Source: Candidatus Bathyarchaeia archaeon
GTDB lineage: Archaea; Thermoproteota; Bathyarchaeia; 40CM-2-53-6
Direction of reading: 5' to 3'
NCBI GenBank assembly: GCA_049513715.1
Contig: JBEKVV010000001.1
Coordinates: 320,001 to 384,000 of the forward strand
Length of the DNA: 64,000 bases
Part shown: in pieces, positions 27,001 through 36,000 of the stretch
How positions within the stretch are numbered: the first letter of the stretch is position 1
Layout of the letters: each line of letters begins with the position of its first letter
Program-made: the position numbers

Positions 27001-30000
27001 TGTGTCGAGAACCCAAGCGAACTTGAAAGTCTCACCAGCGCCAAGCTTGGCGGACTCATCAGCATACTTCGCAATAGTTTTCTCGTCCACGTTCCCCGTG
27101 TCGAAGAGCAAATGCCCAGTCATGGTGCTCTTTCCGTGGTCGACGTGGCCAATGATGATAAGGTTCAAGTGCGGTTTCTTAGAGGATGACATGCATCATC
27201 TTTCCAGAGTTTAATTTACAATTCGTAGTGAAGATTGGCACCCAATATTTAAGGGTTAGAACGAGAACTGCAAGAAAGTTGAGCCAGACAACATGCACGT
27301 TTAATTTAGCGTGATGCTAGAGCGACGCGCTCCATTTCATCGCGTTTTCGAACAGCGAAACTTCTGTTGTCCCTTTGGGCCGCGTAAATGATCTCCTCCG
27401 CAAGGCATTCATCAATGGACCTCGGGTTACTGTAAGCCGATTGCCGGGCTCCGTCGGTCATGAAGCGTAGGGCAATGTCGATTCGCCGCATGGGCGCTAT
27501 GTCTATGGAGATCGGGTAGACGATGCCACCGTACGCTATCCTCGTCACATCTTCAGCCGGCGCAGTGTTCACTACGGCTTTGACCAATGACTCTACAGGG
27601 TTCTTTCCGGTCTTCAGGTTTACGATTTCTAAGGCGTTCTTGACGATCCCGATGGCCTTTGCCTTCTTTCCGCCCACTCTTCCAGGTCGCATCATATTGT
27701 TGACGAGCCGTTCGACGATGTTCAATGAAGCCTTGCGAAAGCGCTTGTGCTCGTGCCTACCCCCGCTATGGGGGTAAAGGATCGGCGTGACGCTCAAGTA
27801 ATTTCCTAGACCCGGGTCCGTAATCTCAATTCCATCAGTGCTCCATTTATCGAAGACCTTGATTTCGGGAGGTTTTCGGCTCATTGTAGCAAACCTATTC
27901 TGGATTTTTGTTAGGCTAAGGGATTCACTGTATTAAGCGTTAACTTCACCGGAGAATATCTACCCAACTATGCAATTCGATTCAGTTCGAATTTCACTGG
28001 GAACTCAGCGCTCGTTCTTGATTCGCTTACTACGCAACTATGGATGGCGGTGGTAGCATCCCCAATGAATTGGCAGTCCTCGCCACCGCGGTTTCCTCAG
28101 AATCGTCTACACCCTGTGGTCCCATCAGCGCCTGGGCGCTCGCCTTACGACTGCTCTCTTCCGAGCCTCATCGGGTTCGACGATGAAGAGGTAAACCCTT
28201 CCCTTCAGAAGGGCTTCCTCCGACGCTGGCCCGGTGGGGCAGAGTATCATCGTTGACTCTGAAGGCCTACTGAGGTCCGGAGCTACCTCTTCCTCAGGTT
28301 AACGGGTCCCCGCGTATAGCCGATTTCGGGTCACAGGGAACGGCTGGCTCCCCGATCCTCCTACCACCGCCAAATCAATCTCAACATAATTCATCATATA
28401 AAGTCGGTACCGTGGGGCAATAGACCCCTTCGAAGCTAGGCTGCGATTGCCTCAAGCATCAGACAAGCCTCACAAAGCCTGTGAGGAGTCGGGTCCCCAC
28501 ACTTCTCGCACTCGTTCAACTCAGATGGCGGCGCAGTATCAGCTAGTGAGTTACGCAGCCTTTCGGCTGTTCTCTGTAGCGTGAACTTGGTGCCCGGATG
28601 TTTCTGTTCCATCTGGTTCATGAAATTCCTGACGTCATTTCTTAGCGCCTCGCTGCTATGGGGGCATGCGATACTCTGAAACTCAAACCCGGACAGGTAG
28701 GCGTAGAGGACCACCTCTCTCTCGAGGATATCACAAAGGGGCTTAATGCGGGTGAGGAATCGCCTCCGCGGGTCGCGCAGCACTGGGCCTGACCGCCCGA
28801 TTCGCGTCGGGTCCCCATGCAACATGTTCAGAAGAACTGTCTGAACCTCGTCGTCGAGGTTGTGCGCAATTGCGATCTTCGTGGCACCGACCATCAGCGC
28901 AGCCTTGTTAATCGCTTTTCTCCGGAACACGCCACAGTGTGAGCAAGGTGTCTGCCCCAGCTGCATCCTAACAATCTCGTCGGTAGTGATTCCGAAGAGG
29001 TTTCTGTACGAGACAACAAAGTGCGGAACCCCGAGATTCTCGCAGGCTTTTCGGGCCAACTCCAAAGCCTCGTCACGATACCCTTCGATGCCTTCGTCAA
29101 CGCTAACTGCAGTGATTTTGCTACGCGGAAAGCGCTTCTCCAGTTCAACCAGAAGGTGAAGAAGCACTAGGCTATCCTTTCCGCCTGAAACCGCGACTGC
29201 GATGTGATCGTCGTGGGCAAGCATTTCATGCTTGACTACCGTTCTTCTGACGTGCTCTTCAATTGCTTCGCGGAAGCACTTCGCACAAAAGGATGTCCCT
29301 TCGAATTCGCGCGTGTAAACGGCGTCTGCTGAGCAAAACTTGCAGAGCACCTTCCGGTACCCACCTAGTATCTGAGAAAACCGAATCGGAAGAGGGAGAG
29401 CCCGACGTTCAGGAGGAGGACGCCGTAAGCAGCTCCGTTGGCAACCATCCGGATTCCTTTCGTCTTCTCAATGCCGAGAACGTTCAATGTCGCCTCCAAG
29501 AATTTGTCTCCGTCGAAGGGGTACATAGGAAGCATGTTGATTAACGCAACACTCACCAAGACTATTGACAACCAGTACTCCGCGTGCAAGAGTATGTTTG
29601 GGAAATCACTCGACACGAACGGAACCTTAGGCTGATAAACGATATCGTCAACCAGCCCGCTGATTCCCATTACAGCATGACTTGCATTATTCGGATCCAC
29701 TACAGTCTTGACTGTGAAGCTTCCCCTCGCTGTTCCCACCACAACTCCCTGCCCGGGGCCGACGTCGGCCATGTAGCGGCGTAAGTCATTGATCCCGGTG
29801 ATTCGTGTTCCATTGATGCTTGTGACGATGTCGCCTGCCTGCAGGCCGGATGAATGTGCTGGAAGGTTGTCTGGGACACTTCCGATTGTTACGCCCGAGG
29901 CAACCACGTTGTAGAAGGGTGCGATTGTTCCGGCGAAGTTGAAGAGTAGGAAAACGCACAATATGCCTAGCACGGCGTTCGTGAAGGAACCCGCTGCGAA

Positions 30001-33000: not shown

Positions 33001-36000
33001 CAAGTACCTCAACTTAGGCGTAGTTGACCTACTCCTTGTCTCTGAGAAGATGAACATACTCCACGTTTACACGAAATGTAAGAACTGTGGCGCTGTTGAT
33101 GACGCATTGATACCTCAGGCTGGGTTCGTGAAATTCGAGCAGGATCTCATGGCTAGTGCGTGCAAGAAATGTAATTCTGCCGCCCTCTCTGTGGACGAAA
33201 CGAAAGACTTGGTTGATGAGTTGATTGATATTGCCGAGAAGGCAAACGCGAACGTGGCGGTAATTTCGACCGAGACTGATGAAGGGGTTATGTTGAAGGA
33301 TTCTTTCGGTGGAATCGCAGCGATTTTGCGGTACAAGGCGTCTTAGGCAAATCGAATCGACATGAACTCTCGCCTGATCCGCGACACATCCTTCCTGATT
33401 TTCTTCGGGTCCTCGTTGCCACCCCAGAGCCGTGCAATTAGCTCTGCTATTTCGCCCATCTGGGACTCTCGCATTCCCCGCCTGGTCTCTTCACTAGTCC
33501 CGATTCTGATTCCAGCGTCGGCGATTATGTTGGCTTCCTCGAGCCTCCGAGCCAACCGCGCACCTTCCTCGGGCGCCGCAATGTCTACGATCACTTGGTG
33601 GGATTCGGTGAACCCATGTTCCTTTCCGACAAGCTTGACTCCATGCTCGTCGAGCGCAATGGCCAGAGCTTTGCTGTTACGGACCACCTGCTGAGCATAC
33701 TGCCTACCAAATCGTTTCATTTCAGACAGTGCGACGTACATTGCCGCAATTCGGTTCCAGTGAGCATTGTCGACAAGTGCTGGGAGAACAACCTCACGCA
33801 GTGCGTCGGCGTGGTCGTTGGATACGATTAACCCACCTTGCGGCCCGAAGAAACTCTTGTGCGTGGAGCCGATCAATACCTCAGCACCTTCTCTGAGAGG
33901 GTCTTGGAATTGGCCTCCTGCAATCAAACCGAGAACGTGCGCGCCATCAAAGACAATGTTTGCGCCCACTTTGCGGCAGGTGTCAGCTAACTTTTCCACT
34001 GGGTGGGGGAACAGGATCAGACTCGCCCCGAAAATCACAACGCGGGGGCGTTCTTGTTCGATCGCTACTGCTGCCTTTCCGGCATCTATGTTCCAGGCTT
34101 CTTTGTTGAAGGGGAACTCGGTAACCTGGAGCCCATAGAGTCTCGGGTAGCCGTCTTGTGAGATGCCTGGGTAGCCGCCAAAGGACGGGCCCACAACCAT
34201 TACCTTGTCTCCATGGTTTGCTAGGGCTGTGAGTGCGATCATGTCGCATGAGTGGCCCGAGATTGGCCTAACGTCAGCGTACTTTGCGTGGAAAACCTCC
34301 TTCGCCAACTCCTCTGTCTCGTGTTGTAGCTCGTCTGTGTATCGGGTTCCCATGTAGAACCCTTCATGTGAAGTGTAGCGATTAGCAAAGTCGAGGCTCA
34401 GCATTGATCGAACCGTGGGGCTGGAGTAGTTTTCGGATGCAAGGAGGTTGAGACAGTTCTCCAGTCGCCATTTCTCGTGACTGCGTATGATGCGTCGCAG
34501 TGTCGGAGGAATTTTCATTCTCGGTCGCGCGCGCCGCTTCATTATGCTTCGCCTATCGTGAAGTAAACTCGAGCTTTCTAATGGGTTGGTTATGTTGGGA
34601 TGAGAACGGAATTCGGTGTCGGCTCAATAACTGTGCGAGAACTCCATCGTGGTTGACGGGGCGTACTAGGAGATGCTTAATTGTGGTTCTAGGGGGCTCG
34701 AGCTCTGACTCTACACTCCCTCCACAAAAGTCCTGATGTGCCATTCCAGATCATTCCGGAGGAGGCGAACATAACCGAAAATCTGCCCTTTCTTCCACAT
34801 CTGCCAAATACCAGCGCTTCTGAAGCCCTCGGCTAGTAGGGTTCGCCGGAAGCGTTCAATGGACCAAGGGGAAATGGAGAGCACGTAAAATCACAAGCGA
34901 ATGCTTCCATTAATCCGCGCCGGGACGCCGACATGAGGCACCCTTCGAATTGGTCCAATCTTATGGAGTACGGGTGGGTGTCGGTAATTTTGGGGGGACG
35001 TGTTACTTTGCGCCTATACGCGACGCCCGCGCCGGCCACCTGGCCTACGGGTTCCATCGTGGGGAATCGGGGTGACATCTTCGATTCTTCCAATTCTAAA
35101 ACCCGCCCTAGCAAGCATGCGAATCGCCGCTTGCGCACCTGGGCCGGGTGTTCGGGCCTTGTGCCCACCGGGGGCTCTGACACGGATATGAAGTGAAGTT
35201 ATTCCCCTGTCCTTCGCAACCCTGGCCGCCGCCCCGGCCGCCTGCATTGCAGCATAAGGCGACCCCTGCAACCTGTCAGCCTTGACATGTTGTCCGCCCG
35301 CGCTGCGGGAAATCGTCTCTGCCCCGCTAAGGTCGGTAATGTGAACTAGGGTGTTGTTGAATGATGAGTAAATGTTGGCGATGCCCCATCTTTGGGCTAC
35401 TTTCTTCTCAGACATCCCACATGTCCTCGCGTTTCAACTGAAGAACGCAAAACAGCAAGCTCGCCATATTTAACCTTGGGGCGAAAGATGTGGCGTCATG
35501 ATTCTTCAGTTTTGGTCTGCTAATTGTCGTATGTGCTCGTTTTCGCGTTTCTCTCTGCATGGTGGCTTGAATGAAAACTCACGGATGGAAGAACTTGTTG
35601 CGCAGTTCAGTTGCTTCTTGGCCAACATTGATGAGGAGATAGGTCATCTCATGTTCCGGACAGAACTGCACAGGTAATTAATCCTCCTCGAACAGTACGC
35701 TATGTCAAAATGGAATGTTGCTTTCCCCTTGAACTACCAAATTCGCTTGGCTTCGAAGTTAGACCTACGCGAAATTTGCTCAATTGAAGACGATTCTTTT
35801 TCCACACCCTATCCGCGCTACCTGATGGCGAAACTGCTTGAGTACAACCCAAGCACGTTCCTCGTTGTCGTTGACGAGTCGGGCAGGCTGTTGGCATACT
35901 GTGTCGCTTCGATAAACGGAAAGTCAGCGCACCTGATTTCTGTCGCAGTTGTGGGGAACGCTCGTAGGAAGGGAGCCGCGACGCTTCTCTTGAGAGGGCT

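Follow-up and report, generated by a model that had tools for sequence, protein, structure and literature searches.

How an archaeon deals with stalled ribosomes when neither pelota nor NEMF/RqcH is found in its genome is the question raised by a short gap between two genes in the 64,000-nucleotide stretch of DNA analysed here (the window), from a Candidatus Bathyarchaeia archaeon. In archaea, aPelota and aEF1-alpha, the GTPase that delivers both pelota and aRF1, enter the stalled ribosome at its vacant A site, and ABCE1 then splits the ribosome, leaving the peptide unreleased; NEMF-family proteins work on the resulting large subunit, which still bears peptidyl-tRNA. According to earlier papers, every archaeon and eukaryote examined has Dom34 (PMC2613156, PMC6514570), and archaeal NFACT proteins are reported from all major lineages (PMC4075521). 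The genome studied here (G000) is 99.4% complete with 8.79% contamination, and comprises 2.8 Mb in 11 contigs.

The genome-wide survey's note had stated that this genome has neither gene, and our searches bear this out. TIGR00111 matched aRF1 alone, at 73 bits and below its cut-off of 177.65, while no match to NF041120 appeared at E<=10 and none to PF05833 exceeded its cut-off. We also searched the 25,403 six-frame ORFs of G000 (--max) using two order-specific HMMs, for pelota and for NEMF, each made from 30 proteins of the genome's own order. The pelota model found only aRF1, the next match having E 0.66 and the N-domain by itself reaching E 5.1 at best; the NEMF model found nothing (best E 0.57), and tblastn gave the same outcome for both. 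Neither in G000 nor in the distant genome G386 (see below) did order-specific HMMs detect divergent homologues. A three-domain pelota with an Sm-like N domain was found neither in G000 and its family nor in the other loser lineages, and a protein with NFACT-N, HhH, coiled-coil and NFACT-R regions was missing from the losers tested, with one exception (G407).

The former place of pelota lies in the window. In the related genomes that keep the gene (keepers), an M50 gene adjoins pelota in 23 of 30 loci, and pelota lies between this gene and a helix-turn-helix (HTH) gene in 4/4 stretches of genus g5 and 3/3 outgroup stretches. In the window, the M50 (site-2) peptidase gene with a PDZ domain (29365..30537, minus strand; Pfam Peptidase_M50, E 5e-18), downstream neighbour of pelota in keepers, and the HTH gene g00382 (30988..31269, minus strand; Pfam HTH_Crp_2), its upstream neighbour, enclose a vacant site of 282 bp (30538..30819), compared with a pelota gene of about 1.07 kb in keepers; no remnant was detected there by HMM or tblastn. 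The M50-HTH interval is likewise without pelota in 5/5 relatives of the same genus, g1. A 48-codon ORF with a TTG start and no Pfam match follows the site (30820..30966, plus strand); it was rejected as a replacement candidate, being kept in several g1 genomes and also in a keeper (G029). Beyond the HTH gene lie an amino-acid-kinase-family gene of pyrH type (31281..31958, minus strand; Pfam AA_kinase, E 1.5e-35), which we take from its family and context to be uridylate kinase pyrH, and canonical aRF1 (32084..33346, plus strand; Pfam eRF1_1/2/3). The region is rearranged in five g2 and two g4 stretches, in which the M50 gene is missing within the stretch, and the g3 contig does not extend far enough to show the site.

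In 20 of 30 keeper loci, NEMF is flanked by a CBS gene on one side and the gene of a small membrane protein on the other. The open frames of these two genes are 85 bp apart in G000 (C1:448002 / 448088), and the empty site between them (C1:448003-448087, outside the window) was negative with the order-specific HMM and tblastn. The survey's description of both genes as cleanly gone from their sites is thus upheld by synteny. The NFACT neighbours AMMECR1 and Mut7-C are kept in both G000 and G386, and the loss is therefore specific to NEMF.

Both genes were absent from all 49 genomes of four genera of the family, whereas, of the order's 56 remaining genomes, 53 had pelota and 52 had NEMF/RqcH, in agreement with the earlier statement that the rest of the order keeps the pair. 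At >=88% completeness, the earlier pelota counts were reproduced exactly (0/24 versus 27/30 above cut-off). The three loser genera then named (g1, g2 and g4) stand, and the number has to be raised by a fourth, g3, whose one genome (80% complete) is also without both genes. The caution that some outside genomes lack a pelota match was justified in that keeper-side misses exist, but these are mostly explained by assembly: the aRF1 match is missing as well in G030 and G033, the G059 contig begins inside pyrH ahead of the pelota site, and G081, G101 and G104 carry pelota fragments at contig edges. For NEMF, the flanking gene is missing as well in G083-G085 and lies at a contig edge in G061. An apparent NEMF-only loss in genus g16 was rejected because the flanking gene is missing too, and a pelota-only loss in G153 because pelota occurs in another member of its genus.

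An RpoB tree had indicated two independent double losses, with the caveat that it was a single-gene tree. On extension to RpoB+RpoA', g1 still grouped with the keeper genus g5 (SH-aLRT 100), and a single loser clade was rejected (AU p 0.016 and 0.013). The aRF1+pyrH+HTH tree gave the g1-g5 grouping again, weakly, and this marker set alone did not reject a single loser clade (AU p 0.11). The five genes combined did reject it, with AU p 0.0015 under LG+F+G4 and 0.0027 under C20-PMSF, and therefore support two independent double losses inside the family. The AU tests were performed in IQ-TREE on fast-search trees, with 20 of 30 rows for RpoB+RpoA', 23 for aRF1+pyrH+HTH and the 19 common to both sets for the five genes.

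The survey's note had placed the joint loss in this clade; the joint loss is real, and its scope was understated, as three further lineages share it. In the Bathyarchaeia order of G387, full-length pelota was found in 0/79 genomes and NEMF in 0/50 tested, with only four mid-region matches of 17-21 bits. In the Nitrosocaldus family, pelota was found in 0/11 genomes (relatives 19/20) and NEMF in 1/11 (relatives 12/12). A small family of another class (f45, two bins) gave 0/2 for each gene, compared with 27/29 for pelota and 5/5 for NEMF in its relatives. G386, of the Nitrosocaldus family, is a single N-free contig of 1,577,284 bp; custom HMMs find neither gene, both sites are empty, and its NEMF site is bordered by the CBS and membrane-protein genes, as in G000. 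A 652-codon frame of G386 with a weak NF041120 match was rejected as NEMF, being an acetyl-CoA-synthetase-like protein by sequence. Thus, at least five loss events have occurred in Thermoproteota, each removing two unlinked genes. Among 300 genomes sampled evenly over the phylum, G000 not counted, eight were without pelota, seven without NFACT-R and four without both, versus 0.19 expected (p 8e-5 to 1.5e-4 with two genomes of one order merged).

Among the lineages surveyed, we found none without NEMF but with pelota. G219 and G377 have pelota and no NFACT-R match; NEMF occurs elsewhere in their genera. G149 has NEMF and no pelota match. The sole Nitrosocaldus-family genome with NEMF, G407 (96% complete), is without pelota like the whole family. 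Its NEMF lies at a contig edge, which accounts for the truncation, so we do not claim a decaying pseudogene; the N half scores low, and the NEMF of keeper G422 also misses Pfam NFACT_N.

The order of G387 carries a pelota family without the N domain. This short form aligned with pelota in hhalign (98%, E 3e-13, 215 columns) but not with aRF1 (27%), unlike the aRF1-type paralogues baeRF1/Balon and VLRF1/Vms1. Its alignment begins at pelota column 161, the N-terminal stall-sensing domain being missing, and the 120 listed relatives range from 214 to 265 aa. The top eight Foldseek hits were pelota/Dom34, and both M and C domains are present. Databases label it ordinary Dom34, and the loss in this order would therefore be hidden. 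It is not a common replacement, since it is missing from G000, G386, G045, G021, G024 and G248; keeper G286 has it alongside full pelota.

The losers keep aRF1, aEF1-alpha, ABCE1, aIF6, SBDS, PTH2 and HflX, so that ABCE1 and aEF1-alpha of the archaeal pelota/ABCE1 pathway are both present. In the window, the retained ORF at 25867..27192 (minus strand) is presumably aEF1-alpha, as named from its sequence and motifs; stretches from g1, g5 and the outgroup carry orthologues 74-94% identical to it. The aRF1 of G000 has NIKS, YxCxxxF and GGQ intact in the alignment and is the sole eRF1-superfamily gene found with aRF1, pelota and acVLRF1 models; aRF1 also stands alone in 5/5 loser genomes and, in a further search, in G000 and G386. 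Mbf1 was rejected as co-lost: G000 has a motif match, G386 none. As the survey had noted, HflX duplication does not track the loss, with two copies in G000 and one in G386.

The pair had been called both arms of ribosome rescue; both genes are indeed lost, and they are better read as successive steps of one arm. We consider it probable that in archaea pelota and NEMF/RqcH make up a single module of two steps, which lineages of Thermoproteota have discarded on at least five occasions. Pelota-triggered splitting would be the main source of aRqcH substrates, and once pelota or its stall-sensing N domain had gone, aRqcH would be left without substrate and be deleted later. That NEMF follows pelota out because pelota splitting supplies its substrate is the best reading; the order of loss comes from one genome, G407. 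The remaining stalls might be cleared by general factors, through HflX splitting or peptidyl-tRNA drop-off and PTH2, or perhaps by occasional stop-independent release by aRF1 with ABCE1. The eukaryotic Dom34/Pelota-Hbs1-ABCE1 and NEMF/Rqc2 (RQC) system uses the same two protein families in the same inferred order, splitter first and then large-subunit tailing factor (PMC8012679); it differs from the archaeal case, which rests on repeated joint loss.

Co-loss is not proof of substrate dependency, because the same profile would follow from the gain of a replacement or from the disappearance of a need common to both. Possibly, a replacement came first: each lineage would have gained or evolved a factor, for example an ArfA/BrfA-like adaptor, able to release the chain while the stalled 70S is still intact, letting aRF1 act without a stop codon and making pelota and NEMF dispensable simultaneously. 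According to PMC8012679, such adaptors arose on several occasions in bacteria and are narrowly distributed; the losers are not reduced, G000 having 2.8 Mb, and kept all other translation factors checked, and a small lineage-specific adaptor would evade all the searches run. However, RF-1 (GGQ)/ArfB and Smr were found above cut-off in 0/5 loser genomes, acVLRF1 paralogues, SmpB, Host_attach/baeRF and bacterial Pth in 0/5, and tmRNA was not found in G000. The tested losers are thus also negative for baeRF1/Balon and VLRF1/Vms1, paralogues of the release factor with a potential role on stalled or idle ribosomes. No aRF1 change was common to all five loser groups (38 sequences aligned), and no candidate was seen among the 440 listed of the 716 G000-G386 orthologue pairs, their names being judged by eye and unfiltered against keepers. 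The survey had likewise identified no replacement factor. NEMF-family genes were also lost several times in bacteria, as with RqcH in E. coli (PMC8012679, PMC4075521), but bacteria without RqcH keep tmRNA-SmpB and Arf factors, whereas the loser archaea were negative with all models tested. It is doubtful, though conceivable, that at least five lineages including Nitrosocaldus use an undescribed stop-independent release on intact ribosomes, with no known rescue system.

A shared task outside nonstop rescue, such as idle-ribosome reactivation or large-subunit recycling under a stress that these lineages avoid, may instead have vanished. Yeast Dom34 splits idle 80S ribosomes as well, but the Bathyarchaeia losers and the hot-spring ammonia oxidisers have no evident common habitat and close relatives of the losers keep both genes, which makes this reading improbable. 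That incomplete bins or overly divergent homologues simulate the loss is very hard to credit. Nearly all the genomes are bins, and the pelota of family f40 has diverged to E about 1e-20; yet the same model still detects it and the N-domain-less form, the counts are 0/49, 0/79 and 0/11, and the empty syntenic sites and order-specific HMMs refute an artefact for G000 and for single-contig G386.

In the literature searched, supplementary gene-loss tables aside, we found no report of a pelota/NEMF double loss, nor a direct study of archaeal pelota and RqcH as one pathway. The losers amount to double knock-outs made by nature on five occasions, in genes described as universal or widespread in archaea, and the co-loss argues, at the genomic level, for a single pathway containing both archaeal pelota and RqcH. 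It raises the question of how nonstop ribosomes are survived without pelota, tmRNA or Arf factors, for which Nitrosocaldus, with existing enrichment cultures, offers a group for testing. If stop-independent release proved true, archaea would have their first counterpart of ArfA/BrfA, and it may have arisen more than once.

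According to the genome-wide survey's note, pelota (Dom34) and NEMF (RqcH, the NFACT protein) are both missing from this genome, and searches of the assembly (2.79 Mb, 11 contigs, completeness 99.4%, contamination 8.79%) bore this out. The curated pelota model matched only aRF1, below its cut-off, and the RqcH and NFACT_N models gave no match above cut-off. Among 25,403 six-frame ORFs, an HMM built from 30 same-order pelota proteins matched aRF1 alone, and one built from 30 same-order NEMF proteins matched none. At the pelota site, inside the window of C1:320001-384000, the M50 peptidase gene (window 29365-30537) and the HTH gene (30988-31269) are separated by 450 bp, the sole content of which is a 48-codon ORF (30820-30966, + strand) with no Pfam match. 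This ORF shows 58-79% conservation in several genomes of the same genus (g1) and in G029 of the keeper genus g5, and is likely a small gene overlooked by callers. The CBS and membrane-protein frames that flank the NEMF site lie 85 bp apart. Since the two sites are ~97 kb from each other, each loss would have taken two separate deletions. ARAGORN found only 9 tRNA genes on all contigs despite the 99% completeness; many non-canonical tRNA introns may explain the low count.

We surveyed 105 genomes of the order, 49 of which belong to genera g1 (23, including this genome), g2 (22), g3 (1) and g4 (3). Pelota was found in 0/49 of these, aRF1 being cross-matched in 47/49 as a control that the search had read them; among the other 56, it was above cut-off in 50 and a contig-edge fragment in 3. 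NEMF was found in 0/49 versus 52/56, and the keeper-side misses of both genes were mostly explained by missing loci or contig edges. These results agree with the claim that the rest of the order keeps the pair; absence from g1, g2 and g4 also stood, but three genera is not the full count, as the single g3 genome lacks both genes too. The synteny described for keepers was recovered, pelota adjoining M50 in 23/30 loci and NEMF lying between the CBS and membrane-protein genes in 20/30. Across stretches of 20 kb, g5 (4/4) and outgroup genomes (3/3) have pelota in the M50-HTH interval, and the interval is without pelota in 5/5 g1 genomes; five g2 and two g4 stretches are rearranged at this site, and the g3 stretch is too short.

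A tree of RpoB and the first ~500 residues of RpoA (30 rows, 1602 columns, LG+C20 PMSF, quick search) gave support of 100 for g1+g5 and 100 for g2+g3+g4, and the AU test against one loser clade gave p values of 0.016 and 0.013 (20 rows). With aRF1, pyrH and HTH alone, one loser clade was not rejected (p 0.11; 23 rows, 729 columns); with the five genes combined it was (p 0.0015 and 0.0027; 19 rows, 2328 columns, g3 left out), supporting the proposed two independent double losses in the family. A regain of both genes in g5 is unlikely, because both occupy their ancestral sites. The g2+g3+g4 clade is long-branched and its joining to g1+g5 is weak or open in the order trees; the family may not be monophyletic.

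In an even phylum sample of 301 genomes (completeness at least 92%), pelota was matched at E<=1e-30 in 284; the 16 misses besides the present genome comprised 5 divergent full-length proteins, 3 fragments and 8 with none. NFACT-R was matched in 293/301, and one of the 7 other misses (G379) holds a NEMF fragment. Both genes were absent in 4 genomes besides the present one versus 0.19 expected (p = 8e-5 to 1.5e-4 after merging two genomes of one order). Another Bathyarchaeia order, that of G387, has full-length pelota in 0/79 genomes and NEMF in 0/50 tested, picked mainly by completeness. Family f57 has pelota in 0/11 (relatives 19/20) and NEMF in 1/11 (relatives 12/12), and both genes are absent in 2/2 genomes of f45, a small family of another class (relatives: pelota 27/29, NEMF 5/5). 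As these three groups add to the two own-family events, there are at least five double losses; the double loss is real and repeated. In family f40 (L067, L072-L075), pelota is strongly diverged yet full-length in 5/5 genomes, possibly through relaxed selection, and NEMF is retained. In the single-contig genome G354 (L068), which retains NEMF, pelota is apparently broken after ~130 codons by a frameshift or sequencing error.

The aRF1 of G386 is closest to Ca. Nitrosocaldus species among named relatives (89-96%), which identifies f57 as the Nitrosocaldus family. The culture in PMC5797428 is an enrichment (up to 92%) rather than a pure culture. The G386 assembly consists of a single contig (1,577,284 bp, no N), and both genes are missing from all of it. 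The CBS gene of G386 directly neighbours the membrane gene, leaving the NEMF site empty; at the pelota site, a 364-bp gap and then an unrelated gene come after the M50-CutA pair, in the position where two keepers of its class (G419, G422) carry pelota beside CutA. The sole family member retaining NEMF, G407, has it at the ancestral site (L157:4698-6107, +), cut by the contig end. The G386 contig also has no match to the Mbf1-like protein of the present genome, and another gene fills the slot near HflX.

A short pelota (~230-250 residues) occurs in 53/79 G387-order genomes, in four genera of one family (L159:4887-5627, -; L160:4050-4799, +; L161:4671-5453, -; each with M and C domains). Its alignment covers the M and C domains of pelota (probability 98%, E 3e-13; versus 27% for aRF1), its predicted fold resembles them (pLDDT 77, top matches pelota/Dom34), and a brief arginine-rich stretch replaces the N domain. 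A protein collection contains 362 relatives (214-265 aa among the 120 listed), many labelled Dom34; N-domain-less proteins carry the ordinary label in databases. Six loser genomes from other clades lack it, and in the keeper G286 it stands beside full pelota; it is thus a paralogue family, which need not be the remnant of that order's own pelota, and we rejected it as a common replacement.

That the absence is an artefact is very improbable, given the empty sites and the gapless G386 contig. Far more credible, though still doubtful, is that an unrecognised release adaptor arose first. Five loser genomes contained no RF-1/ArfB or acVLRF1 paralogue, SmpB, Host_attach or bacterial Pth, and no Smr above cut-off (G248 has one 19-bit match below it); tmRNA was not found in the present genome, nor aRF1 paralogues in it or G386. 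Its aRF1 motifs are intact, and no aRF1 change is common to all loser groups. Of 716 orthologue pairs with G386, 440 have <=330 residues; no candidate was seen by eye among those listed, a weak result as no keeper proteome was subtracted. Two HflX-like GTPases in the present genome (C1:33512-34648 and C3:291896-293053) compare with one in G386. As for aRF1 sequences, G387, the one genome seen, has KIKS in place of the expected NIKS (L077:123-1394, +), and G248 has NIKD.

A lapse of some non-rescue role shared by pelota and NEMF is less probable again. The loss is joint, repeated and specific: ABCE1, aIF6, SBDS, PTH2 and HflX are present in G386 with orthologues in the present genome, as are AMMECR1 and Mut7-C. 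These NFACT neighbours are predicted in a section of PMC4075521 to act with NFACT, but here they survive its loss.

Passages of PMC2613156 call Dom34 universal in archaea and eukaryotes, those of PMC2943090 report it in archaea, and according to PMC4075521 every major archaeal lineage has NFACT; neither pelota nor Dom34 turned up in a term search of the PMC7819960 and PMC5797428 main texts. A literature search, with most subscription journals and supplements outside its scope, returned no report of the double loss, which is apparently unreported so far. An excerpt of PMC8012679 describes how the large subunit still carries peptidyl-tRNA after pelota-triggered splitting, and this is what NEMF proteins take as substrate. 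Once pelota was lost, no splitting-derived substrate would remain, and NEMF would be lost afterwards for want of it. G407, a single bin that has NEMF although its family lacks pelota, is consistent with that sequence of events. We therefore somewhat favour the reading that NEMF depends on pelota for its substrate and probably follows it out of these genomes.
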